From an uncultured bacterium (GTDB lineage Bacteria > Krumholzibacteriota > Krumholzibacteriia > JACNKJ01), in the NCBI GenBank assembly GCA_964627205.1, contig CAZVHI010000003.1, positions 4,830-68,829 on the forward strand: a stretch of DNA of 64,000 bases. Direction: 5' to 3'. Each line of letters opens with the position of its first letter. The stretch's first letter is position 1. The notes under the pieces were generated by a model. The model was not told the DNA's origin. It saw only the letters and a program-made list of their open reading frames with translations, and did not search any database. Below are positions 6,991 to 61,651 of this stretch, piece by piece. The position numbers and the translations under genes were made by a program.

Positions 6991-7164
6991 GAGCACCAGG
7001 GCCGCGGCGTTCTCCGCCTTGACGCCCCAGCCCGCCGCTGTCTGGTCCTGGGCCAGGACGGGACTCGCCGTCGCGGCCAGGCAGAGTCCGGCCAGGCCGC
7101 AGCCGGCGGCGCGGGAACCGATGAGACCGCTGCGGCGCTTGCGCGACAAGAGCAACTCCCGCAC
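6247..7164 (-). CDS. Secreted/membrane protein, paralog A of the tandem-duplicated pair, unknown function
   Basis: 305-aa ORF. Signal/TM region, then a conserved GLNAVEEAIGRSTELG...TCDYTLIGEELYAASAYLSREPVMLGCIKGQD domain, then a C-terminal helix. Its start codon overlaps the hisC stop by 1 nt (TGATG). Confidence 0.6.
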   Translation of the reverse strand: MRELLLSRKRRSGLIGSRAAGCGLAGLCLAATASPVLAQDQTAAGWGVKAENAAALVLFIVFTGVILVSIQLARRGRKLYVRRIAGLNAVEEAIGRSTELGKKVMYIPGIGSVGEVETLSSLAVLKHVAKHTAEYGTPLEVPNRDPLAYAAARETVKEAYLEAGRPDLFHEEMVPYLTYDQFAYTAQVTGRMVREKPAANFLIGSFFAESLLLAEAGQSTGAIQIAGTAQVAQLPFFVTTCDYTLIGEELYAASAYLSREPVMLGCIKGQDLVKFLLLILILAGILWYTLTGDPVVRELLQLGRG

Positions 7165-8902: not shown

Positions 8903-9061
8903 ATCAAAAAGTTAACGTCAATTACCGGAACACCCGCATGACCGGTGTGGAACGTTTTCGATCAAGTCCCCCTACATGAGCCGCCTGCGATTTGGTATAA
9001 TTAAGGGCGATCTCCCTAATATCCGCTGTCGATCCCCTGCTACTTCAACAGGACGGTTCTC

Positions 9062-21116: not shown

Positions 21117-22508
21117 CTAGCGCAGCGCGGCGAAGAGGCGTTGCAGTTTCTCCGGGTCCTTGCGGCCCGGCTCGGCCTCGACGCCGCTGGCCAGGTCCAG
21201 GGCGAAGGGCCCCAGGGCGGTCGCCTCGGCCGCGTTCTCCGGTGTCAGCCCGCCAGCCACGATCACCTGTGCCGCGAAGCGCTCGGGCGCGGCGGCGCGC
21301 AGGCCGCCCAAGAGTGACCAGTCGAAGCGGCGGCCCGTGCCGCCGTGCTTGCCGGGCGAGAAGGCGTCGAAGAGGTAGTAGTCAGCCGGAAAGTCTGCGG
21401 GCGGCAGCTCGGGCGCCGCGTCTGCCACGGGCAGGGCCCGGACGAGGAACACGTCCTCGAGTTGCCGCTTCAGATCGGCCAGCGCGCGCTCGTCGTAGTC
21501 GCCGTGGAGCTGCAGGCCGTGCAGGCCGCAGCGCCGCGCCACGGCGATAAGCTCGTCCACGGGAAGCTCGACGAAGACACCGACCTTCACGCCGGCCAGC
21601 CCCCGCACGATCTCCTCGCAGGCCTCGGGGCTCACGCTGCGCGGGCTCTCCGGGTGGAAGACGAAACCCAGCCAGCTCGCGCCCGCGTCCAGCGCCGCCT
21701 GGGCATCGGCGCGGCTGGTGATGCCGCAGATCTTCACGCGGCCGTAGGTCAGCTCCTTGACCTTGCCCGCCATGTCCGGTGCGGCGAGGATGGCGCTGCC
21801 GATCAGGAAGGCCTGCGCGCTGCCGCACAGCCGCAGCACGTCCGCCCGCGTCTCCACACCCGACTCGCTCACGAGCACGATCCCCTCCGGCACGCGCGCT
21901 GCCAGGCGCTCGGTGGTCGCGAGGTCGATGCTCAGGTCGCGCAGGTTGCGGTTGTTGATGCCGATCAGGCCTGCGCCCGCGGCCAGGGCCCGCTCCAGCT
22001 CCGCCTCGTCGTGGACCTCCACCAGTGCGTCCATGCAAAGCGCTTCGGCGGCCGTGCGCAGCTCGCGCAGTCGTGTGTCGTCCAGCGCGGCTGCGATGAG
22101 CAGCACGGCGTCCGCGCCGAGCCAGCGCGCCTCGGCCACCTGGTAGGGGTCGACGATGAAGTCCTTGCGCAGCAGCGGCCGGCTCGTGAGCCGCTGCGCA
22201 CGGCTCAGGTCCTCGCCCCGGCCGCCGAAGAACTCCGCGTCGGTGAGTACGCTGATCGCATCCGCGTGGCGCTCGTAGACCGCGAGCAGCTCGTCCAGTT
22301 GGAGGTCCGGACGGATGGACCCCCGCGAAGGGCTAGCCTTCTTCACCTCCAGCACGAAGCGGCGGCCCGGCGCGGCCAGCGCGCCGCGGAAGTCCCGGTC
22401 CGACGGCGCCAGCTCGGCCTCGATCTCCGGCAGCGGCCGCGCGCGCTTGGCGCGCGCCACCTCCTCGGCCTTGGTGGCCAGGATCCGTTGCAGGACGGAC
22501 TCGCTCAT
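21117..22508 (-). CDS. trpCF: Bifunctional indole-3-glycerol-phosphate synthase / phosphoribosylanthranilate isomerase
   Basis: Start at MSESVLQRILATKAEEV. N-terminal IGPS domain (FVLEVKKASPSRG, LIGINNRNLRDL). C-terminal PRAI domain (VKICGITSRADA, LHGDYDE). ATGA overlap with the trpD stop. Confidence 0.85.
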   Translation of the reverse strand: MSESVLQRILATKAEEVARAKRARPLPEIEAELAPSDRDFRGALAAPGRRFVLEVKKASPSRGSIRPDLQLDELLAVYERHADAISVLTDAEFFGGRGEDLSRAQRLTSRPLLRKDFIVDPYQVAEARWLGADAVLLIAAALDDTRLRELRTAAEALCMDALVEVHDEAELERALAAGAGLIGINNRNLRDLSIDLATTERLAARVPEGIVLVSESGVETRADVLRLCGSAQAFLIGSAILAAPDMAGKVKELTYGRVKICGITSRADAQAALDAGASWLGFVFHPESPRSVSPEACEEIVRGLAGVKVGVFVELPVDELIAVARRCGLHGLQLHGDYDERALADLKRQLEDVFLVRALPVADAAPELPPADFPADYYLFDAFSPGKHGGTGRRFDWSLLGGLRAAAPERFAAQVIVAGGLTPENAAEATALGPFALDLASGVEAEPGRKDPEKLQRLFAALR

Positions 22509-34130: not shown

Positions 34131-34778
34131 ATGAACCCACCCAACAGAACCCGGAGCGATGGCGGACCCACTCCCCCGAGTCGCCGGGAGTGCCTGATCC
34201 AGAACGCTTGCCAGCTCTTCTCCGAGGCCGGCTTCGAGGGCACGACCGTCCGGCAGATCGCCCGCCAGTGCGGGATCACCGAGGCGGCCATCTACAAGCA
34301 CTTCGACAGCAAGAAGCACCTCTACGAAGAGGTGATCCACAGCAAGTCCCACCAGCACCAGATCGCGGCGCATCTCAAGGCGAAGCGCGGAGAAGGCGAC
34401 ATCGAGGGCGTTCTCTACACCGTTGCGCGGCACATCCTGGACACGGCCCGCAACGATCCCGAGCTGATCCGCATGCTGCTGTTCAGCAGCCTCGAAGGCT
34501 TCCGCAGCTCAACGCTCCTCTATAAGGAGTTCCGCCAGCCCTACATCCTCTTTCTCCGCGAGGAGCTCAAGGAGAGGATGGTTGCGGGCGAGATCCGCGA
34601 GGTCAATCCCTTCATCACCAGCCGCTGCTTCGTGGGCATGGTGATGGACTGCGCGCTGAACGTGGAACTGTGGAACAACCTCGAGAGCACGACCTACTCG
34701 GCGGAAAACGTGATGCACAACAACGTGCCGATCTTCGCCAAGGGGCTGAGGGTAGATGGATCCGCGCCAGGCGCGTAG
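34131..34778 (+). CDS. TetR/AcrR-family transcriptional regulator
   Basis: N-terminal HTH TTVRQIARQCGITEAAIYKHFDSKKHLY. 215 aa. Directly upstream of the cytochrome cluster, like the TetR-family OrfR/OrfS of Geobacter pcc clusters. Confidence 0.8.
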   Translation: MNPPNRTRSDGGPTPPSRRECLIQNACQLFSEAGFEGTTVRQIARQCGITEAAIYKHFDSKKHLYEEVIHSKSHQHQIAAHLKAKRGEGDIEGVLYTVARHILDTARNDPELIRMLLFSSLEGFRSSTLLYKEFRQPYILFLREELKERMVAGEIREVNPFITSRCFVGMVMDCALNVELWNNLESTTYSAENVMHNNVPIFAKGLRVDGSAPGA

Positions 34779-34796: not shown

Positions 34797-36218
34797 ATGA
34801 GAAGCATGAAGAGAATCCTGCCGGCACTGGCCGTCCTAGCCCTGATCGCAGCCGGAATCCACGGCTGCACCAAGGAGCGCGACAGCAATCCCTTCGGCAC
34901 GGGGAACGGCGACGGCGGCGAGGTGGACTGCCTCGCCTGCCACGGGGACGAGGAAATGCTGCGCGAGCTCTTGCCCGTGGAGGAAGGCCGCGCCGCGGTC
35001 TACACCAGGGGGGATGGCTGAGGCGGCGAGGTTCCCCCGCTGGAAGCGTGGGAGAAGGTCTACATCGGCGGCGCCAACGGGAACGCCTTCCTGAACGACG
35101 AGCGTCACGGCCCCGGCGCCCTGAGCTGCCTGAACTGCCACGGGAGCGAGAACACGGTCGGCGACTACGGCGAGCAGGTCGACATCCACGAGGGCGTGGT
35201 GAACGACCCCAGCGCCATCGGCGCCTGCGACGACTGCCACTCGTCGATCGCGGCCGCCACCGCGAACAGCCTGCACACGAACCTCTGGGGCGAGAGGAAG
35301 CTCATCGAGCAACGCGGTCAGTGCAACATCGCCGACTACGAGGACGGCTTCAACGCCAAGTGCAACGGCTGCCACACCACCTGCGGCCAGTGCCACATCA
35401 GCCGGCCCAACAGCGTGGCCGGCGGCTTCGTCAGCGCGCACAAGTTCCGCCCGACGCCCCACATGACCGACCAGTGCACGGCCTGCCACGGCAGCCGCGT
35501 CGGCATCGACTACCTTGGCGAGGCGGGCGGCGGCCTCGAAGGGAACGCGCCCGACGTGCACCGCAACCTGGGCTACCGCTGCGAGTACTGCCACAGCGCC
35601 GAGGAGATCCACGGCGACGGCCAGAGCACGAACGCCTCCGGCCACTACGAGCACCGCTACGAGGTGGCTACCATGCCCCGCTGCGAGGACTGTCACGGCG
35701 ACCAGCAGGGCGGGAACGACTACCATGGCGCCACGCACTGGGGCGCGCTCCAGTGCCAGGCCTGCCACTCGCAGCCCTACAAGAACTGCAGCAACTGCCA
35801 CCTGGAGACAGCCTGGGCGCGGGGCTTCACCATCGATCCCAGCGTCGCGATGCTCAAGATTGGCCTGAACACCCAGCCCGAGCTGCGCGACTACGAGTAC
35901 ACGATCGTGCGCCACGTGCCCGTCGCGCACGACACCTACGAGGCCTGGGGCCTGACGCTGCCGGCCTACGACGACATCCCGAGCTGGAAGTACGCCTCCC
36001 CGCACAACATCCAGCGCTGGACGGCCCAGACCGACACCACCGGCATGGCGGTGGGCGACGTCACCTGCGCCACGGCCTGCCACGGCAGCGGCAACGGCAC
36101 CGACAGCTTCTTCCTGCGGGAGGTCGACCTCTACGAGGAGGACGGGACGACGCCCCTGCCAGACTACGGGGCCAATCTGCCATACGTCGTGGCGGACGAC
36201 TGGCCGCCGGAGTTCTGA
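34797..36218 (+). CDS. Lipoprotein multiheme cytochrome c (about 11 CxxCH/CxxxCH motifs) with one in-frame TGA at 35019-35021; either a selenocysteine recoding site or a nonsense mutation
   Basis: Signal peptide with lipobox LIAAGIHGC and the first CxxCH (CLACH) precede the TGA. The same frame stays open through CLNCH and CDDCH into the ORF-track ORF 35196-36218 (whose GTG start is internal). No ATG/GTG/TTG start exists between the TGA and the CLNCH heme motif, and the downstream part has no signal peptide of its own. Confidence 0.55.
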
Positions 36219-36331: not shown

Positions 36332-38215
36332 ATGCGAATGCGTTGGAGCCTTCTTCTGCTGCCCTTGCTGGCTCTGGGTCTGACGATGGGTTGCTCCGAG
36401 AGCACGACCCCGGTCGACACGCTCACCCCCGCGGAGCAGTTCGACGCCATGGTCGCCGCGGCGGAGACCTACATCAACGACGATACCCAGTGCCCCGGCG
36501 TGATGGCCGCCACCGCGCTGCAGGCGGACCTGGACAACTACACGGTCATCGACATCCGCTCCGAGGCCGACTACGACGCGGGCCATATCCCGGGGGCCTA
36601 CCACTCGTCCTTGGGCACCCTGCTCGCCGACCTCGGCACGCGGGCCATCCCCACGGACCAGAACATCGTGGTGGCCTGCTACACGGGACAGACGGCCGGT
36701 CACGCCAAGATCGCCCTGGAGATGCTCTACCCCGCCATAGACATCTTCAGCCTCAAGTTCGGGATGGCCGCCTGGAACGAGACGCTCACCGCCAAGTGGG
36801 ACAACAACTGCAAGGATGAGCTGACCAATCCCGACCAGACCGACGAGAATGGCAATCTCACGACCCACGACTTCCCCGGTTTCGATACGGGCGTGACGAA
36901 CGTGGACGAAGTGGTCCCCGCCCGCGTGGCCTGGATGCTCGGCGAGGGATTCAAGGCCAAGTCCTTCGACCAGATCAAGGACAACCTCGACGACTACTTC
37001 ATCATGAACTACTTCGGCCAGGCGGACTACCTGGGCCAGGGCGGCAGCGGCGTGCCGGGACACATCCCCGGCGCCTTCCAGTTCACGCCCTACGCGAGCC
37101 TGGGCAATGAGCAGATGCTGAACAACCTGCCCACGGAGCAGGACATCGTCGTCTACTGCTGGACGGGGCAGCACAGCAGCCAGGTCACGGCCTACCTGAA
37201 CATGCTGGGCTACACGGCCTTCAGCCTCAAGTTCGGATCCAACTACCTCTTCCACAGCGACCTGACCGGCCACAAGTGGAGCGCGGGCGCGACCAACGCC
37301 TTCACGCTCGAGAACACGGTCACGGCGCCCTTCAGCGGTATGGCGACGCCCGGCGGCGCCTACGTCAACGGCGGCACCTGCCCCGGCGTGATACTGGCCA
37401 CCGACCTCCAGGCCGACCTGGAGAACTATACGGTGGTCGACATCCGTGACGCGGCCGACTACGACGCGGGTCACATCGAGGGTGCCATCAACTCCTCGCT
37501 GGGCACGCTGCTGGCCGACATCGACGCGGGCACGATCCCGACCGACCAGGACATCGTCGTGGCCTGCTACTCCGGCCAGACGGCGGGCATCGCCAAGATC
37601 GCCCTGGACCTGCTCTACGACGACATCGACATCTTCAGCCTCAAGTGGGGCATGGCCTCCTGGAACTCCAGCCTCACCGGTCCCTGGGACGGCAAGACCG
37701 GCGCCAACGGCAACAACCTGGGCAACCCCAGCCAGGATGACGAGAACTCGAACCTGACCCGTCACGGCTTCCCGAAGCTGGAGGGCTACGACGCGGCGAC
37801 GGTGCTGGAGGAGCGCGTGGCCTGGATGCTCGCGGAGGGTCTCCAGGGCGTGCTGTACGCGAACATCGACCCGGACGACTACTTCATCGTCAACTACTTC
37901 GGCTACGACGACTACATGGGCCAGGGCGGCAGCGGCGTGCCGGGGCACATCCCGGGCGCCTACCAGTTCACGCCGGCCGCCAGCCTCGAGATGGACCAGA
38001 TGCTCTACAACCTGCCCCTGGACGAGCAGATTCTCGTCTACTGCTGGACGGGTCAGACGAGCGCTCAGATCACGGGCTACTTGCGCATGTTGGGTTACGA
38101 TGCATATAGTCTGAAATTCGGCTCGAACAACCTGTTCTACGACGACCTGACGGGCCACAAGTGGAGCGCAGCGCAGACCAACGACTTCCCGCTCGTCCCC
38201 ACGGCGCTGCCCTAG
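36332..38215 (+). CDS. Lipoprotein with four rhodanese-like (sulfurtransferase) domains arranged as an internal tandem duplication
   Basis: Lipobox LGLTMGC. Two roughly 300-aa repeats, each with two rhodanese modules. Active-site loops CYTGQTA, CWTGQHS, CYSGQTA and CWTGQTS. Rhodanese signature DIRSEADYDAGHIPGA. Confidence 0.75.
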   Translation: MRMRWSLLLLPLLALGLTMGCSESTTPVDTLTPAEQFDAMVAAAETYINDDTQCPGVMAATALQADLDNYTVIDIRSEADYDAGHIPGAYHSSLGTLLADLGTRAIPTDQNIVVACYTGQTAGHAKIALEMLYPAIDIFSLKFGMAAWNETLTAKWDNNCKDELTNPDQTDENGNLTTHDFPGFDTGVTNVDEVVPARVAWMLGEGFKAKSFDQIKDNLDDYFIMNYFGQADYLGQGGSGVPGHIPGAFQFTPYASLGNEQMLNNLPTEQDIVVYCWTGQHSSQVTAYLNMLGYTAFSLKFGSNYLFHSDLTGHKWSAGATNAFTLENTVTAPFSGMATPGGAYVNGGTCPGVILATDLQADLENYTVVDIRDAADYDAGHIEGAINSSLGTLLADIDAGTIPTDQDIVVACYSGQTAGIAKIALDLLYDDIDIFSLKWGMASWNSSLTGPWDGKTGANGNNLGNPSQDDENSNLTRHGFPKLEGYDAATVLEERVAWMLAEGLQGVLYANIDPDDYFIVNYFGYDDYMGQGGSGVPGHIPGAYQFTPAASLEMDQMLYNLPLDEQILVYCWTGQTSAQITGYLRMLGYDAYSLKFGSNNLFYDDLTGHKWSAAQTNDFPLVPTALP

Positions 38216-38331: not shown

Positions 38332-40314
38332 ATGCGAAACGGCGACACTCATCTGAAAACTGTTCTGGCGCTTCTGCTCGTGTCCATCATGTTCGCTCTC
38401 GCAGGCACGTCCGTGAGCGCGGAGGAGTGGAGCACCGACGACTGCGTGGACTGCCACGCGGAGCCCGACGAGGACACCGTCGAGGTGACGCGGGCACACC
38501 TGGCGGACGGCGTTCACGCCGACTTCGAGTGCATGGACTGCCACACGGAGATCGACGACCTGCCCCACGAGGAGGAGCTCGCACCCACCGACTGCGGCGA
38601 ATGCCACGAAGACGAGGAGGAGGTCTACACGAAGCACGGCCGCGGCGTCATCGGCGTGGACGACACCATCCCCACTTGTGTGGAATGCCACGGCACCCAC
38701 GACATCCGCGAAGTCGAGGACAAGGGATCGCTGGTCAACCCGCTGAACCTTCCCTCCACTTGCGGCACTTGCCACGAGGACGAGGCCTTCACCGAGGAGC
38801 AGCAGATCCGCTTCAAGCACCCGGTGCGGGTCTACGCCAACAGCGTCCACGGCCGCGCGGCCGTGGGCGGCATCTACTCGGCGGCCACCTGCAACGACTG
38901 CCACTCCACGGACGGCAGCGCGCACCAGATCCTGTCGCCCGGCGACATCCGCTCGACGATCAACCACTTCAACATCTCGGCGACCTGCGGGCGCTGCCAC
39001 AAGTACATCGAGCAGGACTACCGCGAGGGCATCCACGGCGAACTGACCGAGCGCGGCCAGGTGGAGTCGCCCATCTGCACGACCTGCCACGGCGAGCACA
39101 ACATCCTCCCCACCGACGACCCGCGCTCGCCGGTCAGCGCCCATCGTCTCGCCGAGGCCACCTGCACCCCCTGCCACGAGTCGGCCTCCCTGAACGAGAA
39201 GTACGAGCTGCCCACGGGCCGCCTACACTCCTTCCAGGACTCCTATCACGGGCTCAAGAGCAAGGCGGGCGATGTAACGGTGGCCAACTGCGCCTCCTGC
39301 CACGGCGCGCATCGCATCCTTCCGTCCACCGACGAGACGTCCACGATCTTCCCGGCCAACCTGCAGCGCACCTGTGGCGGCTGCCACCCCGAGATCTCGA
39401 TGGAGATCGCCCAGATGTCCATCCACGAGGCCGCGGGCCTGCATACGGGCATCGCGGGGCTCGTGCGCAAGATCTACCTCATCCTGATCTTCGTCGTGAT
39501 CGGCAGCATGGCCATCCACTGGCTCATCGACCTGCGCCACCAGATCAAGCAGGTCATGAACAAGAAGAACCAGGTGCGGCGCATGGACGGGGACGAGGTG
39601 GTCCAGCACTTCATCCTGGCCCTGTCCTTCACCGTTCTCGTGGTGACGGGCTTCTCCCTGCGCTTCTATGACTCCTGGTGGTCGGAGATGATGTTTGGCT
39701 GGGAGGGCGGCTACACCTTCCGCGGGACCGTGCACCGCTTCGCGGGCGTGGTGCTGCTGCTGGCATCAGTCTGGCACACGATCTTCCTGTTGACTGCGCG
39801 CGGGAGGATCTTCCTGAAGGACATGTGGCCGAGCTTCAAGGACTTCAAGCAGTTCATGCAGATGAATGCCTACAATCTCGGAGTGAGCAAGGACCACCCC
39901 CAGTTCGCGCGCTTCTCCTACGTGGAGAAGGCCGAGTACTGGGCGCTGGTCTGGGGCACCGTGGTGATGGGGATCACGGGCCTGTTGCTCTGGTTCGACA
40001 ACGTCGCGGTCAACTGGATGCCCAAGGGTGTGCTGGACGTGATGCTCGTGATCCACTACTACGAGGCCTGGCTGGCCTTCCTGGCCATTCTCATCTGGCA
40101 CATGTACTCGACTGTCTTCAGTCCCAAGGTCTACCCGATGAATCCCTCCTGGCTGACGGGCAAGATGCCGGAGTCCCAGTTCCTGGCTGAGCATCCCCTG
40201 GCAGTGGCGGCGAGCAACATCGACAAGATCGACTACATCAAGGCCCACCCCGAAGAGGGACGGGCCGGTACTGGCAATCCGGAGGGGAAGTCCGAGGAAG
40301 ACGCCGTCGACTGA
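38332..40314 (+). CDS. CbcL-like fusion: periplasmic multiheme cytochrome c domain (11 CxxCH) plus C-terminal membrane di-haem cytochrome b (FdnI/HydC-like) domain
   Basis: Signal/anchor LKTVLALLLVSIMFALAGTSVSA. Eleven CxxCH motifs from CVDCH to CGGCH. Then 4-5 TM helices with conserved His (HFILALSFTVLVVTGF, HRFAGVVLLLASVWH, VIHYYEAWLAFLAILIWH). Confidence 0.75.
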   Translation: MRNGDTHLKTVLALLLVSIMFALAGTSVSAEEWSTDDCVDCHAEPDEDTVEVTRAHLADGVHADFECMDCHTEIDDLPHEEELAPTDCGECHEDEEEVYTKHGRGVIGVDDTIPTCVECHGTHDIREVEDKGSLVNPLNLPSTCGTCHEDEAFTEEQQIRFKHPVRVYANSVHGRAAVGGIYSAATCNDCHSTDGSAHQILSPGDIRSTINHFNISATCGRCHKYIEQDYREGIHGELTERGQVESPICTTCHGEHNILPTDDPRSPVSAHRLAEATCTPCHESASLNEKYELPTGRLHSFQDSYHGLKSKAGDVTVANCASCHGAHRILPSTDETSTIFPANLQRTCGGCHPEISMEIAQMSIHEAAGLHTGIAGLVRKIYLILIFVVIGSMAIHWLIDLRHQIKQVMNKKNQVRRMDGDEVVQHFILALSFTVLVVTGFSLRFYDSWWSEMMFGWEGGYTFRGTVHRFAGVVLLLASVWHTIFLLTARGRIFLKDMWPSFKDFKQFMQMNAYNLGVSKDHPQFARFSYVEKAEYWALVWGTVVMGITGLLLWFDNVAVNWMPKGVLDVMLVIHYYEAWLAFLAILIWHMYSTVFSPKVYPMNPSWLTGKMPESQFLAEHPLAVAASNIDKIDYIKAHPEEGRAGTGNPEGKSEEDAVD

Positions 40315-40396: not shown

Positions 40397-40993
40397 CTAC
40401 TTGTCGTCGGCGGCCTTCCTCGTCTCGGCGTAGTTCTCGGGATAGGGGTGGGCGATCTCCTCCGACCGCTTCTCGTAGTCGAACTCCTTGAAGGTCGGGC
40501 TGTCGGAGTTGTGACAGGCCGTGCAGGTCTCCTCGGTCACCTCGAGGAGCCCCACCGAGGCGGCCTCGATCGCGCCATCGTAGATGCCCTTCATGGTCTT
40601 CTTCTTTTTGTAGCCGCTACCGGGACCGTGGCAGCTCTCGCAGGAGACGCCCTCCTCGAGCGTGATCTTCTGGGTCGCCAGGTCGGCCATGACGGGGAAC
40701 GCCGTCACGTGGCACTTCAGGCAATCCGCCTCTTCCTGCGGATTGCCGAGCCCCAATTCCGCGGCGATGGTCTTGGACTCTTCGCTGGCCAGGGTCGCGT
40801 AGGCGCCGGCGTGCACACCCTCGGACCAGGACAGGTACTGGGCACCAATCTTCTCCTTTTTGTGGCACATCTTGCACTTCTTGACGCCGACGTAGTTGTA
40901 CTCCTCCTCGGCCGCGAAGGCGAATCCAGCCAGTAGCCAGGTCAGAGCCAGGGCGCCAGTGAGAAGCGCCATGAGTGTTTTCTTCGCAGACAT
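40397..40993 (-). CDS. Periplasmic tetraheme cytochrome c
   Basis: Start at MSAKKTLMALLTGALALTWLLAGFAFAAEEEY (signal peptide). Four CxxCH motifs (CKMCH, CLKCH, CESCH, CTACH). The ORF-track extension to 41374 was rejected. Confidence 0.7.
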   Translation of the reverse strand: MSAKKTLMALLTGALALTWLLAGFAFAAEEEYNYVGVKKCKMCHKKEKIGAQYLSWSEGVHAGAYATLASEESKTIAAELGLGNPQEEADCLKCHVTAFPVMADLATQKITLEEGVSCESCHGPGSGYKKKKTMKGIYDGAIEAASVGLLEVTEETCTACHNSDSPTFKEFDYEKRSEEIAHPYPENYAETRKAADDK

Positions 40994-41061
40994 CACTTGC
41001 AGTCCTTTCTTCTCGAGTTCTCCCGCTCTCCCCGCGGGTCGCTTGCCCCGCCCGTCCCGTC

Positions 41062-41706
41062 TTATTCGCCCATGCCCGGATGGCAGCCGCCGCAGAGACT
41101 CGGGGGCAAGCCCTCGTGACAGAGGATGCAGCTCCCGAGATCCGCCCGGCCCTCCATCGCGTGCCGGCCGCCGCTGCCGGAGACCCACTCCGCGGAGTAG
41201 TGGTCGCTCGGCTGAATGCCGAAGCTGGCGTGGCAGTCCGTGCAGTAGCTTCGCAGGTCGTGGCAGCTCGCGCAGTCCTCGCTTCCCTTTAGCGCCGTCA
41301 TGGCGTGCGTGTAGAACCAGTTGCGGTCGTGCGCCAGGAAGTCCACGTTCTCGCCGTGGTGGCACATGCTGCACTCCTCCGACTCGCGATGACAGAGGGC
41401 GCAGTCCATGTCTCCGCCGCGCACATTATACTGATGTCCGTGCAGAAAGTCTCCCCAGTGGCTGCTGGGCCTCTCGGGCAGTGTCACCAGCACGTTCTCG
41501 TCCTCGTCGTGGCAGTCCAGGCAGACGCCGGGGCCGGGCAGCGCCGCTCGCCGCGGCAGCCCGCCGCCCGCGAGGGAGTGGCATTCGGTGCAGTCCATCT
41601 CCGCGTCTTCGAGATGAACCTGATGGTCGAAGACATCGGCACCGATGCCGCCGACGGGAACGAGCATCAGGAGCGCGGCCGCCAAGATCCAGGCTGTCTT
41701 ACTCAT
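41062..41706 (-). CDS. Periplasmic octaheme cytochrome c
   Basis: Signal peptide MSKTAWILAAALLMLVPVGGIGA. Eight CxxCH motifs (CTECH, CLDCH, CALCH, CSMCH, CASCH, CTDCH, CILCH, CGGCH) in 214 aa. Confidence 0.75.
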   Translation of the reverse strand: MSKTAWILAAALLMLVPVGGIGADVFDHQVHLEDAEMDCTECHSLAGGGLPRRAALPGPGVCLDCHDEDENVLVTLPERPSSHWGDFLHGHQYNVRGGDMDCALCHRESEECSMCHHGENVDFLAHDRNWFYTHAMTALKGSEDCASCHDLRSYCTDCHASFGIQPSDHYSAEWVSGSGGRHAMEGRADLGSCILCHEGLPPSLCGGCHPGMGE

Positions 41707-43060
41707 CGCTCACCTCCTGCCCCGGCGCGACTCGGAAGCGATAAGCGACGCGGCCGAGGAACCTCAGCTGGTGCTCGGCCCGTGGGTTCCTGAGCAACTC
41801 GACGGCGGTGGTGACATCGAAGCGGTCCGCGAGAGTGGCATCCAGCCCCAGGCGCGTGGCCAGGGACTCGTCGTCGACCACGAGCTCGTCCTCGAGGTCG
41901 TCGACCTCGCCGTAGCGATAGTAGACCTTGTTCAGGTCCAGCCAGAGGGCGACGCCATCGGTCAGTTCGTAGCGGACCTTGCCGTAGATCCCGTCCTGGT
42001 CGCCCCCGAAGCCGCGCTGCAGGCGGTAGCCGAAGGCGTAGCCGGGCCGCGAGAGGCCAATGCTGAGGCCGTCTCCACGCTTTTCGCCCTCGGGGAAGAC
42101 CTCGATCAGGTGCAGGTTGATCGTCCAGCCCGGAAGCAGGCGGCAAGGCTGCGACATGTGGGCGCGGACCTCGTCGGTGAGCTGTAGAAAGTTGCCCGTG
42201 AACCAGATCCGATCCTGGAAATATCGGGCGATGTAGGACTGGTCGGCCGACGGCGCGAGGCCCTCGCGCCGGTTCCACGCCAGGCTCGCCGAGCCCTGCT
42301 TAAATCGGTAGTCGAGGCGCAGGTGACGGTGGTAGGCCACCTCCTGCCCCAGGTCGTAGCGGTGCTCGTAGCGCAGGGCCACCGAATCGCGGGGACGCCA
42401 CAGGGCCAGCAGGCCCAGGCGGCGCCCCTCCTCCTCGCCCCCGCGGAAGAGACGGGCGGCGCTGACGCCGAAGCCCAGCCCCGCGGGCAGGGCGGCGCTG
42501 CGATAGGCGGCGCCCCAGAGGCCCGACTCGTCGAAGGCGTCGGTTGCCAGACCCTCGAAGCCGTCGCCCGCGGGATCCAGGAAGCCCCGCGTGCCGCCGA
42601 AGAGGGTCAGACGCCCCAGCCGCGCGTCGGTGAGCTGGAGGCGCGCCCCGTCGAGGCGACCGCTGCCGACGCCTGCGTAGACCCACTGGCGCCCCAGCGC
42701 CAGCAGCGCGTTCGGCCGGGGCCGAAAGCGCAGGTAAGCATGGTAGGCGCGCGCGCGCGACTTGCCGATCCCCTCTTCCAGCACCTCGCCCCGGTGCGTA
42801 CCCAGCCAGTGCAGCGAGAGCGAGGGGTGTCCCAGCTCACGCGCGTCGAGGGAGACGCGCTGGATGAAGTCCCAGTGCTTCTCCTGACCGGGCGGGAAGG
42901 TCTCGTAGACGAAGGACGAACTGGTGACGCGACCGTCCAGCTCCAGGGCCTTCGCCCCGCCGAAGGTCATGGCCCCCGCCGCGATTGCGAGCAGGAAGAC
43001 CGTGCGCCGTTTTCGCCAGGCCCCCGCGGGCGACGGATCGTATCGTTTCAACATCCTCAT
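41699..43060 (-). CDS. Predicted outer-membrane beta-barrel protein, a candidate porin partner of the cytochromes
   Basis: Signal peptide. 453 aa rich in alternating aromatic/Gly/Arg beta-strand-like segments. Its stop overlaps the octaheme cytochrome start by 8 nt. No named domain recognised. Confidence 0.5.
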   Translation of the reverse strand: MRMLKRYDPSPAGAWRKRRTVFLLAIAAGAMTFGGAKALELDGRVTSSSFVYETFPPGQEKHWDFIQRVSLDARELGHPSLSLHWLGTHRGEVLEEGIGKSRARAYHAYLRFRPRPNALLALGRQWVYAGVGSGRLDGARLQLTDARLGRLTLFGGTRGFLDPAGDGFEGLATDAFDESGLWGAAYRSAALPAGLGFGVSAARLFRGGEEEGRRLGLLALWRPRDSVALRYEHRYDLGQEVAYHRHLRLDYRFKQGSASLAWNRREGLAPSADQSYIARYFQDRIWFTGNFLQLTDEVRAHMSQPCRLLPGWTINLHLIEVFPEGEKRGDGLSIGLSRPGYAFGYRLQRGFGGDQDGIYGKVRYELTDGVALWLDLNKVYYRYGEVDDLEDELVVDDESLATRLGLDATLADRFDVTTAVELLRNPRAEHQLRFLGRVAYRFRVAPGQEVSDE

Positions 43061-47703: not shown

Positions 47704-50700
47704 CTACTTCGCGCCCACCTTCGTCACTCCGATGGTCTCGTAGACCGACATCTTGCCCTCGGTGTCCCAGACCAGGACGCCGATGCGGTGATCGCCGTCC
47801 TCCCAGCCGTTGATGTTGAAGGTGGTCATGAAGTAGCCGTCGTACTGGCCGCCGACCTCGGGATCCCACGCGATGTCGAAGGGCGGGTCGGCCGGCATCG
47901 GCCAGCCGTAGTCGTCGATGTAGAACTCCACGTAGTCGATCTCGGTGCAGTGCCAGTCGGAGGGGTTCACGACGATGTCGATCACGGACTGCTCGTCGGC
48001 GTTGAGCTCGTCACCCTGCTGCGGGGTGATCCAGTCCTCGGGAGCCATGAAGGGTCCCTCGCCGTCGACGATGTTGATCGTGTGCGTCACCTGCGCCGTG
48101 TTGCCCTCGGTGTCCTGCACCCAGACCGTGGCTTCCAGGATGGTCCCGGCCGCCAGGCACTCGGTGGAGAGCATGTAGTCGAAGCCCTCCAAGACTTCCG
48201 GAGGCGCCGCGTCGTTCACCGGGTTCGGATAGTTCGAAACGAAGACCTGGCTCAGGAGCACCGGCGGAATCCCGGTGACGTCGACCACCTCGAAGGTGCC
48301 GTCGGTCCAGTACCAGATGTCGCTCACGTCGAAGCTGAACTCGATCTCCGTGCCGCCCTCGTCGCTGAGGTCGGCGGGCAGGAAGTCGGTGATATCGGGC
48401 GGGTCGTCGCCGTAGATGTGCAGCTCGTTGTCGGTCGAGCTGATCCCGCACTCGTCCTCGATGGCGTACTGGACGCAGAGGTCACCCACGCCGTAGTCCT
48501 CGGTGTGGATGATCACCGGGATGTTGTCCGGGTTGTCCTCCTCCCAGGGCATCACGCAACCCCAATCCCAGTAGTAGTTCGAGATGAGGTCGCCGTCGTT
48601 GGAGAAGCTGCCCTGATAGGTGACGTCGGTCCCGAACAGCACCCAGGCTTCCGGGCCGCCACTGACGTTGGTCCAGAAGGCCAGATCCCATGGCACGTCG
48701 TTCTTCGTCACGCAGATGCTGCCGTCGAAGCCGACCTCGTAGGAGTTGCCGTTGGGCTGCGCGAGGTCCCAGACCCTGGCGCCGAAGCAGAACTCCGTAC
48801 CCGCGGGATAGATCATCGGGTCGTAGCTCCACATGTAGAACGCTTCGCCGCCGATGATCGAGTTGTCCGTGCCGACCAGAGTGTAGCCCCCGCCGTCGAT
48901 GGAGACGTAGAAGTCCACGCGGTCGAGATTGCCATCACCGTAGTTGTCCGCGATGCCGTCGACCATGAGCCCCAGTGGCGAGCTGATGCAGGTCGTGCCG
49001 TCAGGCGGTCCGACCCAGCCCATCGTCGGCGGTGTGTTGTCGATGTAGATGTCGGAGGTGTCGAAGGCGCCCTCGCCGATGTTGCCGGGCGTGGTGCCGT
49101 CGCCGGTGTACTCGTCCTCCACCGTCACCCCGATGGTGTAGACACCCTCGCTGGCGTAGGCGTGGGTGGCCGCGAAGACGTCCTCGCCGAGGTACTCCGT
49201 CCCCGTGCCGTCATCCCAGTCGACCCAGATGTAGATGTGCTCGTTGTCGTCCGAGATGTAAGGCCCGAAGTCCACCACCGCCTGGTAGGGGCTCGGCTGG
49301 AACACACCGTAGTCGCCCGGCAGGTTCACCACCGGCGCGTCCGACTTGTAGACGATGAAGGTATCCGACCCGGTCAGGCCGCCGAGGTCGTAGGCACGGG
49401 CCTCGATCTCCACGAGACCGCCGGGGTAGCCGGTGAAATCGATGTCGACCGGGAAGTTGGGCTGGGTCCAGGACTCGCCCATCTTCACGCCGCCGACGTA
49501 GTACTCCACCTTCTCGACCTCGGGCATCGTGCCGCGGTCGTAGGTGCCGGCCGGATCCACCTCGAAGGGCTCGAGGCCGGTCAGCACGTCGCCCGGACGC
49601 GGCACCAGGAAGAGCACGTCGGGCGTCGTCACGTCCTCGATCTCCACGTAGACGGAGGTGGTCCGCTCCAGGTCCGTGTTGTCCCTCACGAGGAGAGTGA
49701 CCCAGTAGCCGCCGTAGCCGTCGCCGGAGGCGAAGTAGTCCCAGTCCACCGGATCCGGATCGGTCGTGTCCAGATCGTAGGAGCCGTCGCCGTTGAAGTC
49801 CCACCGATAGAGGTCGATGGCGCCGCCCGCGCCGCCGTTCTCGTCGTCGTGGGACGCGAAGGCGGAGAAGGACAGCTGCAGGGACGTCTCGTCGGTCCAG
49901 TCGCCGTTCACCGGCTCCGGATCGATCTCCGCGTGGGGCGGATCGCTCTTGTAGACGTTGATCGTCACGAGCGGGAAGGACATGTTCGGCGGCGGTACCG
50001 TGAAGTCGTAGGCGATGGCGGTCATCGAGTACGGGCCGCTGTCCATGCCGTCCCAGTCGAAGTCGAAGCCGTGGACGACCGCGTTGTCCCACGGATCGGG
50101 GTTCGTCCAGCTCAGGGTCTCCGAGAAGCTCCCGCCGTCCTCGATGACCAGCTCCAGCATGTCCAGGATGCCGGCGTCGCCGTCGTGCTCGTCGATGGCG
50201 TCGACGATGTAGTCCATGTTCGCGCCGTACTGGGCGCCCCAGCCCTCGATGTCGAGCGCCAGATCCATGGGCTCGCCGTCATCGGCCTCCAGGCTGTTGA
50301 CCACGGGGTTCGTGGTGTCGGCGATGGAAACGCGGCAGACCGCCTCGTCGGTGAAGCCCGCGCTGTTCTCCACGGTCACGCGGCAGTCGTACATGCCGAT
50401 CGCGTAGGTGTTGGTCGCCGTGGGAAGGGTCGTGGTCTCGTCGATCACGCCGTTGTCGTCGAAGTCCCAGTGGTAGAAGTCGATCTGGTCGCAGTCGTCG
50501 TAAGCCGTCACCGTGAATGTGATGTCGCTCGGGTTGGTCTCGCCCGCATAGCGGTCGGAGCCGAACTCCGTGCCGTAGGGAGGCCCGCCGAGCTTGGTCA
50601 CGAGGATCTGGTTCACGCCGCCGGCGCTGGTGTTCCCGTTCACGTCAGTGACCGTGGCCCAGAGGTAGTACTCCTGGCAGTCCCAGCCGGCCGTGTTCCA

Positions 50701-53700
50701 GATGAAGCACCAGCCGTGCTCCCACTCGTCGTCCGCGTACAGGGTCTCGATGACCGTGCCGGCCGCGTAGAAGGTGATGTAGTCGACCTCGGGGCCGCTG
50801 TCGCGGTCGATGATCGGGCCGATCACACAGATCTCGGTGGTGAGCTGGAACTCGTCGGGAGTGGCCTTGATCTCCACCGCGTCCGGTGCAGTGCAGTCGG
50901 AGATCTCTACCACCACCGGGTCGCTCCAGGCGATGCGGCCGGTCGCGTCGGTGCCGATGAGCCGCGCCGAGTAGAAGCCGTACTCGGGGAAGTGCCAGAC
51001 CCAGGGCAGCTCCGGCATGTTCTCGATCGACTCCTCCGGGAGCTCGTCCGCGTCCACCCAGTTGGGATCGCCGAGACCCGTGAAGGGACCGGAGAAGCTC
51101 CAGCCGTAGCCGAACTCCGCGACGCCGTTGTCGTCGACGATCGACCAGCCGTCGAAGGCGACCGGGATGCCGCCGTTGACGTAGTCGTAGGGCGCGCAGT
51201 CGTTCGTGTAGGTGATGTCCGGCAGGGTCACGCAGGGCAGGTCGCTTTTCACGACCTCATCACTCGCCTGGGTCCAGTTACCGGCCACGTCGTAGATGCG
51301 GTAGTAGATCTCCCAACCCGCGGCCGAATCGACCCAGTTCTCGCCGCAGTACGGCTCGTAGTCGAAGGGCTCGACGCCGTCGATCTGCCAGACGTAGGGG
51401 CTCGACGTGTGGGAGAAGTCCCCGAACTCGCCATTTGCCCAGCCATAGTAAGTGAGCGTGCCGAAGTCGAGGTCCGAATAGCAGGCCCATCCCATCCAGT
51501 CCTCGGCGGCGTGGATCACGTCGGCCGTCCCGCTGACCAGGTGGGTCCCGGGGTAGCCCTCGAAGTCCACCACGTCGAAGTCGGTGATGACGGGCGCGTC
51601 GTTCTCCATCGTCAGCGTCCAGGTCTGCATGACGTAGGGCAGCTGGTAACCGGTGTCGGTCGTCTCGCGGACGCGAACGGCCAGCGTGTAGTCCACGCAC
51701 CACTCGTCGTAGTAGTCGAGCCACACGTTCTCGCCCGTCTCGTCCACCGAGAAGCTGCCGCTGTACTCGAGGTCCCACTCCACCAGGTAGCTGCTGGGCG
51801 TCGGGTTGCCGCCCCAGACGTTGTCGTCGGTGTAGTTCAGGCTGAAGTTGGGCTCGAGCTCGTTGGCCCAGGCGTGCTCGCCCACCGCGAAGCCGCGATC
51901 GGGCTGTCCGCCGATGTGGCGCGTGATGCCGGTGATGACCGGCAGGTCGGACTTGTAGATCCGGCGCGTCGCCATCGGGCCGTTGTTGCCCGAGTTGTCG
52001 GTGGGCAGGGCCAGGAGATCGTAGTAGTCGCCGGTCGCCGGCAGGTCCTCGCCCTCGAAGTTGCAGGTCCAGGCCGCGCCGTCGGCGTCCGTGCAGATCT
52101 CGCCGGTCGCGCCGCCGTTGACCTGGTCGTAGCTGAAGGCCACCTGCGCGATCGCGGGGAACCAGTTGTCACGGTCGGAGCCGGACACGGCGAGGGCCAC
52201 AGGCACGTTGTGGTCGCCGATCACCGAGTCGACCGCCGGGGCCGTGAACCAGATATCCGGGCCGATCACGTCTTCGATGAAGATGTCCTGACAGCCGGAA
52301 CCCACGATGTCGTAGATGTCCCGGACGTCGACGCAGACCTGGTAGTCCCCGTAGCCGAGCGTGAAGTCGAAGTCGACCATGTTGTAGGAGTCGCCCTCGT
52401 ACCACACGCCCTGCTCGAGCTCGAGGCCGCCGGTCGTGTAGACCGTGGCCGCGGGATCGGTGGGGCAGGTCCACATGAAGTCCAGCGGCGCCTGCTGCTC
52501 GTGGTTGTCGTCCCAGGACTCGTGGGCGTCGATCCGGACGATCCATTCCTCCGGATCGAGCACGGTGTAGGGACCAAAGAAGGGCACCGGCGCGCAGGTC
52601 TTGATGAAGTCGACCAGCGAGCTCAGGTCCGTCTGTCCGTTGGACAGGTAGGCCTTGGCGTAGATGCGAAGCTCGCCGCCCTCCATGTCGGTGATGTCGT
52701 AGGCCACGCTCCAGCCGCCGGCCTCGCTCGTATCCTCGCCGAAGTAGGTCTCGTCACCGGCGAAGAAGAACTGCACCTTGTCGACGGTGATGTCGCGCTG
52801 GGCGATGGCCGCCTTGGGGTCCTCGCTGCGCGTGGGCGGCAGGAACTCGACGGTGGCCGTGAAGTCCACGGGGCCGCAGAGCAGCTCGTCCGGCGCGGGC
52901 GTGGTCACTGTGACGAGGATGTCCGCGAAGCAGTCCACGATGAAGGGCACCGCGGCGCTGTTGTAGCTGGCCTCGTCGGAGAGGTAGGCCACCGCGTGCA
53001 CGTTGTGGCCGCCCTCGGGCATCTGCGCGGCGCAGGGATCGTACTGGAAGGTCCACTCGGGGCCCTCGTAGTCGATGCCGAAGGGGGCGGTCTCGGAGTC
53101 GAAGTAGAACTCGACCCGCTCGACGTCGGGCAGCTCGCGCGTGTCGAAGGTCACGCTCGCGGTGAAGATGAAGCTGCCGCTGATGTCATGGTTCTCGATG
53201 GGCGCGATGATCGCCACGACCGGCTCCGGACAACTGTAGGCGATGTCAGTGAGCTCGTCGTTGCCGACGTTGCCGCACTGGTCCGTGGCCGCCGCGCCGA
53301 TGGTGTAGTCGCCATCGCCGTCGAACCAGGCCGCGTCGACGACGAAGGAGTAGGTGTTCTCGCCGAGATCCGTGTAGTCGCAGGACACCGAGTCGGCATC
53401 GACGAAGAGGACGAGGCTCGCGAGAGTGTTCGCTTCCACCACCTCGACGAGCAGTTCGTCGCCGGAGCAGAAGAGCTGATCACCCTCGGGCGGCGTGATC
53501 GCCACCACCGGCGCCGTCTCGTCGTTCCAGACATCCACCGTGAACACGGGGTTGTCCGCGTCGCCGTGGTTGCCGGCCGTGTCGAAGGCATCGATCGTGA
53601 TCTCGACCCCCAGAGCCGCGGCGATCGGGTCGATGCCGGTGAAGGTAAAGTCGTATGCGCTGTCGCTCGTCCCGGGCTCGTCGACCGCAACCTCGACGCC

Positions 53701-53940: not shown

Positions 53941-54402
53941 CTTTTCTCTCCTTACCACAGTCCTTGAGCTTCGGTAGCTCTTAGTGGAACTCCGGCAACT
54001 TTCCCTCACCCGTCCGGGAGAAGGTGTAATTGTATTCCCGTGCAACTCGTTATCTGCGGGCTCTAAACCCGCGTATCTCCTCGCCACATACCGGCATGGC
54101 AGAAGGCGCCACCCGCCGAGTGGACGCTAACCTGGACAGCAAACTCCTTTGAAAAACCTTTGTCAAGGAGTTTAGGACCCGGCGGTTGCCATTCATGATC
54201 CCGCTGGGATCGGGCTCTCCGCCCTCTCGGGTCGTTCCCGTTTCTAGCGGATGAAATGAATTCAAGCAACTGTTTTCGTCCCTAGTTAAGCCGGCGTAAA
54301 AGATGCGGAATACGCACTTGCTCCCCGCCGCGCTCAGGCGCTAAGTATGTCTCGTGGCGCCGAGTTCCCCGGCGTCGAATCCAAGCCCGGGAGCTGCGTC
54401 CG

Positions 54403-60367: not shown

Positions 60368-61651
60368 TCAGCTGCTCGTCTTCATCCTTGCGATCAGAGC
60401 GTCCACCATCTCCTCGAAGGCCTGCTCGTCACCCGGCCGATAGCCGACCGTCTTGAACATGATCCGGCCCTGGTGGTCGACGAAGATGTTCATGGGGACG
60501 CCTTGCACGCCGAAGCGCTCGCCGGCGACGTCCTGGTCGTCCATCAGATGGGGCCAGACGTCGGCGCCGATGCTCTCCACGTACTCCCGCGACATCTCCG
60601 CGCGGTTCGTGGTTTCGATGCCGATGAGCGCGAAGTCCTGATCGCTGTACTTCTTCACCATCTCTACGAGATGGGGCATCTCGTGCTTGCAGTAGCTTCA
60701 GGTCGGGTGCCAGAAGTTGATCATCAGCACCTTGCCCCGGTAGTCCGAGAGACGGTGCGAGACGCCATCGAGGTCGGCCAGCGTGAAGTCGGGCGCGTCG
60801 GTCGCCCGCGTAAGCCGTCTTTCCCAGAGGCCGGCGCGATAGGCCTCCACGTCGCGGCCGGTCTTCGCGACCATGGTCTCGGCCTTGGTCTGCAGCCGGC
60901 TGTCGACGCGGAACTCGAGCTGCAGGCTGTAGAGGGCCAGGAGCTTGGGCTCCTCGCCCATCGCGAGGTAGACCTCCTCCAGGTGATGCGCCAGGTCGCC
61001 GTCCGGCTCGGCGAGTTCCTCCATGGCCGTCTCCAGGTGCAGCGAGGCCAGGTCGTAGCGGCCCAGCTTGAAGTTGCCCCAGCCCGCGGTGTCGAGGGCC
61101 ATGGCCTTGTAGATGCCCGGCTCGGCCGTCTTCGCGGCCCGCTCGGCCATCTGCGCGCCCAGCTCGGGATCCCAGCCACTCTCCTCGACGAGGTTCCAGG
61201 CGACGGCATTCAGTGCGTTCGATGCCTCCAGCCCAGAATCCCAGAACTCCTTCGCGAGCACCAGGGCGGCCTCCCTGTCCTCCTTCCCCGCGGCCTGGTC
61301 GAAGAGGACCTTGTAGAGCTCGCCCTTACCGTTTGCGCTCGGCTCGGTCGCGAGGGTCGCGCGCGCCCACGCGGCCGCCGCGTCCCCGTCCGCCTCGCTC
61401 TTCAGCTTCCAGAGCCCCGACAGGGCCGACCGGCGGTACTCGGACTCGGGGAAGTCGGCGAGGAAGGCCGAAAAGGCGGCCTCGCGCTCGGCCGCGTCCT
61501 CGAGGCCGTAGGCCGCGCTGATGGCCTCCATGTCGGCCGGGGTGGTCTCGGTCGTGGCCTGCTCCGCCTGGCCCGCCTCCTCGCCACCACCGCAACCCAG
61601 GATCGAGACGAGGAGAAGAAGCAGTGCGCTGATCGTGATTCCCGCTCTCAT
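60368..61651 (-). CDS. Lipoprotein with helical/TPR-like region and C-terminal TlpA/ResA-type thioredoxin domain; candidate selenoprotein with in-frame TGA (60698-60700) giving a UxxC active site
   Basis: Lipobox LLVSILGC. ORF-track ORFs 60698-61651 and 60368-60679 are in one frame separated only by TGA. Read through, the active site is VLMINFW-HPT-U-SY-C-KHEMPHLVEMVKKY, which aligns to the TlpA motif FWASWCGPCRxEMP with TGA at the first Cys. An 8-bp hairpin lies 13 nt downstream of the TGA. Confidence 0.6.
60666..60684 (-). other. Stem-loop immediately 3' of the in-frame UGA, a candidate bacterial SECIS-like element
   Basis: On the mRNA: acgagaug-ccc-caucucgu, an 8-bp perfect stem starting 13 nt after UGA. 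The apical loop lacks the canonical G/U, so it needs model-based verification. Confidence 0.3.

Follow-up and report, generated by a model that had tools for sequence, protein, structure and literature searches.

A candidate eleven-haem cytochrome c selenoprotein, encoded across an in-frame UGA and paired with a rhodanese gene, in an uncultured Krumholzibacteriota bacterium and its relatives

Recently, MccSep (ExtKL), a pentahaem cytochrome c selenoprotein encoded by GSU2937-2936 of Geobacter sulfurreducens and represented by NCBIfam model NF040886, was reported to reduce polysulfide and selenite (Mihara et al., Sci Adv 2026, PMC13510729). Its D-G-U loop, in which U is selenocysteine (Sec), lies beside a His/Cys haem, and its gene is part of the extHIJKL… cluster (PMC13510729). 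NCBIfam describes ExtH of this ext operon as a rhodanese-like protein. In a 2026 review of prokaryotic selenoproteins, the only cytochromes are ExtKL, the GSU2204 family and proteins of the octahaem tetrathionate reductase (OTR) family, some GenBank-annotated members of which are listed as selenoproteins (PMC13188914). In OTR itself the unusual active-site ligand, Lys56, belongs to a segment that precedes the haem-2 motif C74xxC77H78 (PMC3769277). The present analysis concerns another cytochrome gene with an in-frame UGA, found in a 64,000-nucleotide stretch of DNA from an uncultured bacterium of the Krumholzibacteriota (GenBank assembly GCA_964627205.1, contig CAZVHI010000003.1, positions 4,830 to 68,829, forward strand), which as a whole is called the window below. 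From its sequence and those of its relatives, the gene is predicted to encode one 470-residue lipoprotein precursor that binds eleven c-type haems, with the UGA at 35019-35021 decoded as Sec. A probability of roughly 0.88 is given to this reading.

The reading frame extends from ATG 34806 to the stop codon at 36216-36218. An earlier reading of the window, made from the sequence only, had claimed that TGA 35019-35021 is the only stop in it and that the parts on either side share one frame, and this was borne out over the whole frame (34806-36218). A GGAGG is located 9 nt before ATG 34806, and an alternative ATG is present at 34797. The elements of the gene, including a candidate selenocysteine insertion sequence (SECIS), are as follows.

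34806..36218, plus strand: cytochrome gene, full coding sequence of 470 codons and a stop, with Sec at codon 72 and a single internal TGA
34806..34868, plus strand: lipoprotein signal peptide and lipobox (…AAGIHG-C21), read from the sequence
34929..34943, plus strand: haem-binding motif 1 (CLACH), the sole one upstream of the UGA; C42, C45 and H46 are invariant in 78 orthologs
35019..35021, plus strand: candidate Sec72 UGA, motif G-D-G-U-G-G; TGA in 77/79 orthologous loci
35034..35052, plus strand: SECIS-like hairpin cccccgc-uggaa-gcguggg, with a 7-position stem, one C·U mismatch, loop UGGAA and a 12-nt spacer after the UGA
35127..35141, plus strand: haem-binding motif 2 (CLNCH), located past the UGA but ahead of every possible restart codon

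Ahead of the TGA, 71 codons specify a MKRILPALAVLALIAAGIHG-C lipoprotein signal and a single haem motif, CLACH. Behind it come 398 codons with nine CxxCH motifs and one Cx3CH, which together are the ten-haem remainder recognized in the sequence-only reading; the Cx3CH site of the window protein is a CxxCH in distant homologs. Around codon 72 the peptide reads GDG-U-GGEVPPLEAWEK, which puts Sec72 in a loop rich in glycine (G-[D/E]-G-U-G-G) after haem motif 1 and before haem motif 2, where the ordered haem core starts. The protein has a Pfam Cytochrome_C7 match above the cut-off of that family, and its export signal, multiple CxxCH motifs and conserved distal ligands are those of a multihaem c-type cytochrome. 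Maturation of c-type cytochromes requires a signal peptide. Since the part downstream of the TGA has none, and since no restart codon precedes CLNCH (the earliest in-frame ATG, GTG or TTG past the TGA is GTG 35196), the two parts need to be translated jointly. Both of these points had been made from the window alone, and the dependence of the downstream part on an upstream signal peptide holds among the relatives described below, where 78 of 78 reconstructed proteins have the signal or lipobox and the first haem motif upstream of the UGA.

Gene callers annotate a 71-aa open reading frame (ORF) and a 339-aa ORF at this locus, as though it held two genes, a monohaem lipoprotein terminated by the TGA and a ten-haem cytochrome with a start of its own. 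Such an arrangement is very improbable: with no start codon before GTG 35196 it would leave CLNCH and the conserved LEAWEKV untranslated, its downstream product would have no signal peptide, and homologs with Cys, Trp or Gln at the position of the UGA are single continuous proteins.

Relatives of the gene were scanned for in one genome per species, and 553 genomes had one. The best 80 loci were kept for comparison, 79 of which were informative at the Sec codon when read in frame upstream. In this alignment, which the sequence-only reading had put forward as a check for Cys, Sec or an ordinary sense codon, the homologous codon is TGA in 77 of 79 loci and TAA or TAG in none; the remaining two loci carry TGG and CAA, and Cys was found in distant homologs. 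The context of the stop in the 77 loci is G-[D/E]-G-stop-G-G-x-V. When these 77 loci and the window are translated through the UGA, the 78 reconstructed proteins share one architecture, with a signal peptide or lipobox and the first CxxCH upstream of U, followed by about ten haem sites. The lipobox Cys is kept in 99% of the 78 orthologs, and the haem motifs, U and ten non-motif His residues are invariant or nearly so. In addition, more than 1,700 database homologs of the fused protein were retrieved, and nearly all of them span just 70-83% of the query. Their annotated N-termini start at (M/V)PELEAWEKV, four to six codons past the position of the TGA, as is characteristic where gene callers halt at a Sec codon. 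A word-indexed search with the N-terminal 137 residues as query gave no matches.

A recent nonsense mutation or a base-call error would require only a single-base change from TGG or TGC, and the public annotation does contain a truncated gene (P0001, 339 aa). Nevertheless, a pseudogene or an artefact of sequencing or assembly can hardly be credited, since a conserved TGA in a shared architecture is a pattern that neither could yield. Both halves of the protein are under strong purifying selection, as judged from the haem motifs, the lipobox and ten distal His residues, and the frame has no other lesion. The same TGA that is found in 77/79 orthologs of many phyla is also present in contigs from two different samples (L087 and L088), which have 0 and 1 mismatch to the window over ~3 kb; the assembly error for which the sequence-only reading had allowed is thus excluded.

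The segment downstream of the UGA was compared in a gapless alignment of positions UGA-3 to UGA+47, made up of 71 distinct sequences (window 35016-35066 and 70 loci). In register A, in which 35034-35040 are paired with 35046-35052, 84% of cells are paired, versus 25-56% in a control in which the 3' partner was slid by one to three columns. At alignment pair 23-33, 27 sequences have AU and 26 have CG. This pair joins the middle base of an E/A/P/T/Q codon with the third base of an Ala/Val codon, which is synonymous in Ala codons. Within the subset of 48 sequences with at least 6/7 register-A pairs, a 5' A faces U in 26/26 cases (GAG or CAG with GCU) and a 5' C faces G in 22/22 cases (GCG, CCG or ACG with GCG; one CCG with GUG). 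A second arrangement, register B, was found in 18 sequences; it is shifted by three bases per arm and has 8 bp, a GUU loop and a 9-nt spacer. Register B displays compensatory double changes, e.g. CCUCC/GGAGG versus GUUCC/GGAAC, and fold z-scores of -2.5 and -3.1. Taken over both registers, 65 of the 71 distinct sequences reach at least 6/7 (register A) or 7/8 (register B) pairs. The other six fit neither register well, and the choice of register follows clade.

Both registers lie inside the V-P-x-L-E-A-W codons, with a G/U-containing loop ~21-25 nt from the U of the UGA. The loop of the minimal SECIS of Escherichia coli fdhF is found at that distance from the UGA, and the position and size of the hairpin suit a bacterial SECIS, which has a spacer of about 11 nt after the UGA and a small apical loop with G/U. 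Five non-Sec genes were also read as DNA (TGG twice, CAA, TGT and TGC); in these the stem has either acquired at least two further mismatches or disappeared. Two interchangeable registers within one conserved coding segment would provide a case of a SECIS evolving under coding constraint.

More distant full-length proteins were collected by an exhaustive HMMER search with a full-length homolog and then aligned. Seven of them have Cys in the Sec column (P0125, P0130, P0151, P0174, P0181, P0186 and P0206), and in two cases the Cys codon was checked in DNA (P0125 TGT, P0130 TGC). Homologs with Cys aligned to U are the classical mark of a Sec position. Otherwise the column contains Trp in five proteins and Gln, His and Met in one each, while Gly was seen in none. 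The Trp, Gln, His and Met forms indicate that some lineages can dispense with the residue and have lost it; a single mutation would turn either TGG or CAA into a stop codon. The possibility that the Trp homologs are products of TGA translated with code 4 was rejected, as their codons are genuine TGG. Some of the non-Sec forms belong to a subclade (P0070, P0105, P0106, P0109, L040, L041 and L045) in which an inserted stretch adds two or three CxxCH motifs. The Sec-form loci of this subclade have 12-13 CxxCH motifs; P0070 and P0105 have lost Sec (Trp and Gln, respectively), and P0106 and P0109 are without the Sec loop entirely.

Among the Pfam-supported genes of the window, 17/32 end in TGA, 15/32 in TAG and 0/32 in TAA. 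UGA is therefore an ordinary stop codon in this organism, as the sequence-only reading had also held. The loop would look natural as G-D-G-G-G-G if UGA were read as Gly throughout the organism (code 25), and an organism-wide Trp reading (code 4) is the other form that an alternative genetic code could take. The chance of either is negligible in view of the 17 genes that end in TGA, the G+C content of the window (67%), the Cys, Trp, Gln, His or Met but never Gly in homologs, and the presence of the same TGA in phyla not known for codes 25 or 4.

Selenocysteine use in this organism is also suggested by a second gene. The sequence-only reading had pointed to another Sec candidate at 60698, and a TGA is indeed present there within a thioredoxin-fold gene.

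60368..61651, minus strand: predicted second selenoprotein gene, encoding a ResA/TlpA-like thioredoxin-fold lipoprotein with motif W-H-P-T-U-S-Y-C; TGA 60698-60700, hairpin 60666-60684

The AhpC-TSA/Redoxin domain of this protein spans the UGA, and its hairpin, of 8 bp, lies 16 nt downstream of the TGA. Weak matches were obtained to the curated WAxxUGC and TUGYCR selenoprotein families, below their cut-offs. The protein also has a long helical N-terminal domain. Two other adjacent stop-to-stop segments with high third-position G+C, at 1453-2181 (minus strand) and 21499-22146 (plus strand), are non-coding shadow frames and were not retained as Sec candidates. Among the relatives, a Neomarinimicrobiota metagenome-assembled genome (locus L080, JACNLB010000053.1) was found with ARAGORN to carry a tRNA-SeC with anticodon tca at 4030-4123, 1.9 kb upstream of the orthologous cytochrome gene. 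The L080 cluster comprises HTH and MerR regulators, the Sec-cytochrome, a rhodanese, a 404-aa protein without Pfam match and three more multihaem cytochromes.

Several observations weigh against the decoding of this UGA as Sec. SelA, SelB and SelD were not found by Pfam scans of ~40 ORFs of the 64-kb window, and ARAGORN detected no tRNA, and so no tRNA-Sec, in it. The hairpin of the window, rightly called weak in the sequence-only reading, starts 12 nt after the TGA, carries the C·U mismatch and taken alone folds no better than shuffled sequence (z = -0.03). No SECIS family of Rfam was matched, either at gathering thresholds over the whole window or at E <= 10 over 34980-35120; two chance matches were all that was returned. 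Several non-Sec homologs have Trp, Gln, His or Met, not Cys, and among the 78 orthologs there is no conserved free Cys that could be a resolving or haem-ligating partner. Trp is also the residue that near-cognate read-through of UGA would insert.

Under read-through independent of Sec, a near-cognate tRNA (e.g. tRNA-Trp) would decode a leaky UGA, with the hairpin only stimulating the event, and the cell would contain both a monohaem lipoprotein of 71 residues and a full-length cytochrome carrying Trp72. This explanation draws on the TGG (Trp) at the exact codon in L001, L002, P0142, P0146 and P0161, and on the failure to find Sec machinery in the window. It is nonetheless improbable, because the 77 loci all have TGA with no TAG or TAA, Cys forms occur in several distant lineages, the hairpin covaries at a position and size that suit a bacterial SECIS, a classical UxxC thioredoxin-fold Sec gene is located in the same window, and a tRNA-Sec adjoins the L080 cluster. 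Thus, of the two explanations offered in the sequence-only reading, Sec recoding or a pseudogene, the former gained support from the TGA in 77/79 loci, the covarying hairpin, the Cys homologs, the second Sec gene and the tRNA-Sec of L080, and the latter was discarded. Under Sec decoding, the hairpin 9-12 nt past the UGA would act as a bacterial SECIS for SelB·Sec-tRNA(Sec).

The cytochrome gene is located between a regulator gene and further genes for redox proteins.

34131..34778, plus strand: TetR-family regulator gene (NCBIfam matches), directly upstream of the cytochrome gene
36332..38215, plus strand: rhodanese lipoprotein of 627 residues with four rhodanese domains (translation and NCBIfam rhodanese-type matches)
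38332..40314, plus strand: CbcL-like fusion of a multihaem cytochrome c with a dihaem cytochrome b membrane domain (Pfam Cytochrome_C7/c3 and Ni_hydr_CYTB; NCBIfam formate dehydrogenase gamma-type b subunit)
40397-41374 and 41699-43060, minus strand: c554/MtrC-like multihaem cytochrome beside a 453-aa protein without Pfam match

A rhodanese gene is found directly downstream of the cytochrome gene in 72/80 loci, and the Cys-form locus L086 likewise has one. The Cys active-site loops of the rhodanese domains in the window are CYTGQTAG, CWTGQHSS, CYSGQTAG and CWTGQTSA. A TetR gene occupies the same upstream position in 41/80 loci. The CbcL-like gene comes directly after the rhodanese gene in the window and is near the cytochrome gene in 10/80 loci; its product is probably the quinol-side electron donor. 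The N-terminus of the 453-aa protein is signal-like and its C-terminus reads …VAYRFRV; the protein has the look of an outer-membrane barrel and is weakly similar to the unannotated 404-aa protein of the L080 cluster (pairwise E = 2e-4). Together with the c554/MtrC-like cytochrome it may constitute a porin-cytochrome conduit like ExtI. The Trp- and Gln-form loci L001-L004 have a ~300-aa Paired_CXXCH cytochrome and a ~640-aa protein without Pfam match upstream of the TetR/cytochrome pair. In L002 and L003 the cytochrome gene is not directly followed by a rhodanese gene, and L001 ends just past the cytochrome gene.

Elsewhere in the window, the product of 47704-54126 (minus strand) is probably a giant surface protein; it has 2,140 residues and Ig-like domains of the Big_7 and PKD types. 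Tandem DUF6754 paralogs (each E ~1e-109) are encoded at 5151-6119 and 6247-7353, both on the minus strand, and the products of 3-872 and 9020-10672 (plus strand) have C-terminal FlgD_ig or Por_Secre_tail domains, which are type IX secretion sorting signals. These domains point to a place of the organism in the Fibrobacterota-Chlorobiota-Bacteroidota (FCB) superphylum, which agrees with the Krumholzibacteria, Eisenbacteria and Fibrobacter labels of related metagenome-assembled genomes.

In a confident AlphaFold2 model (pLDDT 82.8, pTM 0.81), made for the Cys-form homolog P0125, the Cys is placed where a low-confidence linker passes into the ordered core. A Foldseek search of the PDB with the predicted structure gave no matches. 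Sequence and profile searches against PDB chains returned generic haem-motif matches only, with neither MccSep nor OTR among them. Ten distal His residues, those outside the haem motifs, are conserved in the 78 orthologs, versus eleven haem sites. This leaves room for a non-His ligand, and the ligand of the eleventh haem could be Met, Lys, Sec or nothing.

By synteny, fold and analogy, the cytochrome selenoprotein would be the catalytic subunit of a periplasmic respiratory module, in which the CbcL-like cytochrome c/b fusion would draw electrons from the quinol pool and the haem chain would pass them to an active site made up of Sec and a nearby haem. The rhodanese lipoprotein would bind sulfane sulfur, or selenium, as a persulfide and hand it over to Sec. 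Attack by Sec on S-S or Se-S bonds would follow, and these would then be reduced; the compound could be polysulfide, tetrathionate or thiosulfate, or selenite. As we infer it, with regard to substrate, direction of electron flow and Sec-haem geometry alike, the enzyme would be a periplasmic reductase (possibly oxidase) for sulfane-sulfur or selenium compounds, and the odds on this functional model are about even.

A more specific and rather unlikely proposal is that Sec72 is the sixth ligand of a haem, or is positioned directly over an open haem, to form a selenolate-haem centre with no partner Cys. It has room because ten distal His residues serve eleven haems, no free Cys is conserved and Sec precedes haem 2, in the segment from which OTR draws its unusual active-site ligand. 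If true, this centre would be a cofactor arrangement undescribed in nature, and the family a widespread, unrecognised class of periplasmic sulfur/selenium respiratory enzymes of the FCB group and of uncultured phyla related to it.

To date, the proteins of this family have been listed in databases as truncated 'hypothetical protein' entries or, wrongly, as sulfurtransferases. The JGI label 'thiosulfate/3-mercaptopyruvate sulfurtransferase' is attached to many of the cytochrome fragments (e.g. P0013, P0016 and P0027), which probably spilled over from the neighbouring rhodanese gene or arose through fused gene calls, and which is misleading. As a consequence of such mis-annotation, a complete exported enzyme with eleven haems is overlooked when the metabolism of these lineages is reconstructed. 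Neither the window protein nor its Cys and Trp homologs reach the cut-off of any curated NCBIfam model. No description of an eleven-haem Sec-cytochrome family was found in the full-text literature searched, the coverage of which is incomplete, so that an earlier description is possible. What emerges looks like an uncatalogued, widespread family of multihaem cytochrome selenoproteins, present in at least 553 species-level genomes, mostly of uncultured phyla. Its fixed pairing with a rhodanese suggests a selenium-dependent respiration of polysulfide, tetrathionate or selenite in sediments and bioreactors.

Other sulfur enzymes offer partial parallels. TsdA, SoxAX and DsrJ have His/Cys-ligated haems, with a chalcogen side chain at the haem that performs sulfur chemistry. 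They resemble the cytochrome here as multihaem or dihaem proteins, although ligation by Sec is only a possibility in the present case, and PDB and fold searches found no sequence or fold match to any of them. In Wolinella succinogenes, the periplasmic rhodanese Sud delivers polysulfide sulfur to the reductase PsrABC. A similar pairing of a periplasmic rhodanese with a respiratory sulfur reductase is proposed for the four-domain rhodanese lipoprotein, whereas the reductase in PsrABC is a molybdoenzyme and not a cytochrome.

The OTR family (Shewanella oneidensis SO_4144, PDB 1sp3, TIGR04315) offers a parallel in that OTR is a multihaem enzyme acting on sulfur compounds, and Sec72, like Lys56 of OTR, is located upstream of its own haem-2 motif. 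OTR has eight haems, in contrast to the eleven sites of the protein here, which is also a lipoprotein. Membership in this family was rejected, as the TIGR04315 match is weak and confined to a local stretch (22.5 bits versus a family cut-off of 375 bits). Likewise, the model for the GSU2204 family CXXCH (seleno)protein, NF041027, gave no match.

MccSep/ExtKL is the closest system by mode of action. Like MccSep, the protein here is a periplasmic multihaem c-type cytochrome whose gene has one in-frame UGA with a short downstream hairpin and is annotated as two split ORFs; Sec is found in a D-G-U loop, and Sec and Cys forms both occur in the family. A rhodanese-like lipoprotein is also encoded in each cluster (ExtH in the one case, 72/80 loci in the other), which is a likeness in mode of action and not grounds for membership. 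The differences are considerable. MccSep has five haems and the present protein eleven sites; Sec is near the C-terminus on an Ig-like domain in MccSep, but is residue 72 of 470, before haem 2, here; and MccSep is a soluble tetramer, whereas a lipoprotein is encoded here. A strictly conserved haem-ligating Cys239 lies next to Sec in MccSep, while no free Cys is conserved here. The taxa also differ: MccSep is found mainly in Desulfobacterota and Nitrospirota, and the loci related to the window are labelled Krumholzibacteria, Eisenbacteria, Gemmatimonadota, Calditrichia, KSB1, Ignavibacteria, Neomarinimicrobiota and others. NF040886 had no match to the window protein at E <= 0.01 or to three of its homologs at E <= 1, and the cytochrome described here is not a member of the MccSep family. 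It was only recently, with MccSep (2026), that multihaem cytochrome selenoproteins proved to be real enzymes. If the Sec reading is true, the present family would add a second and unrelated one with more haems.

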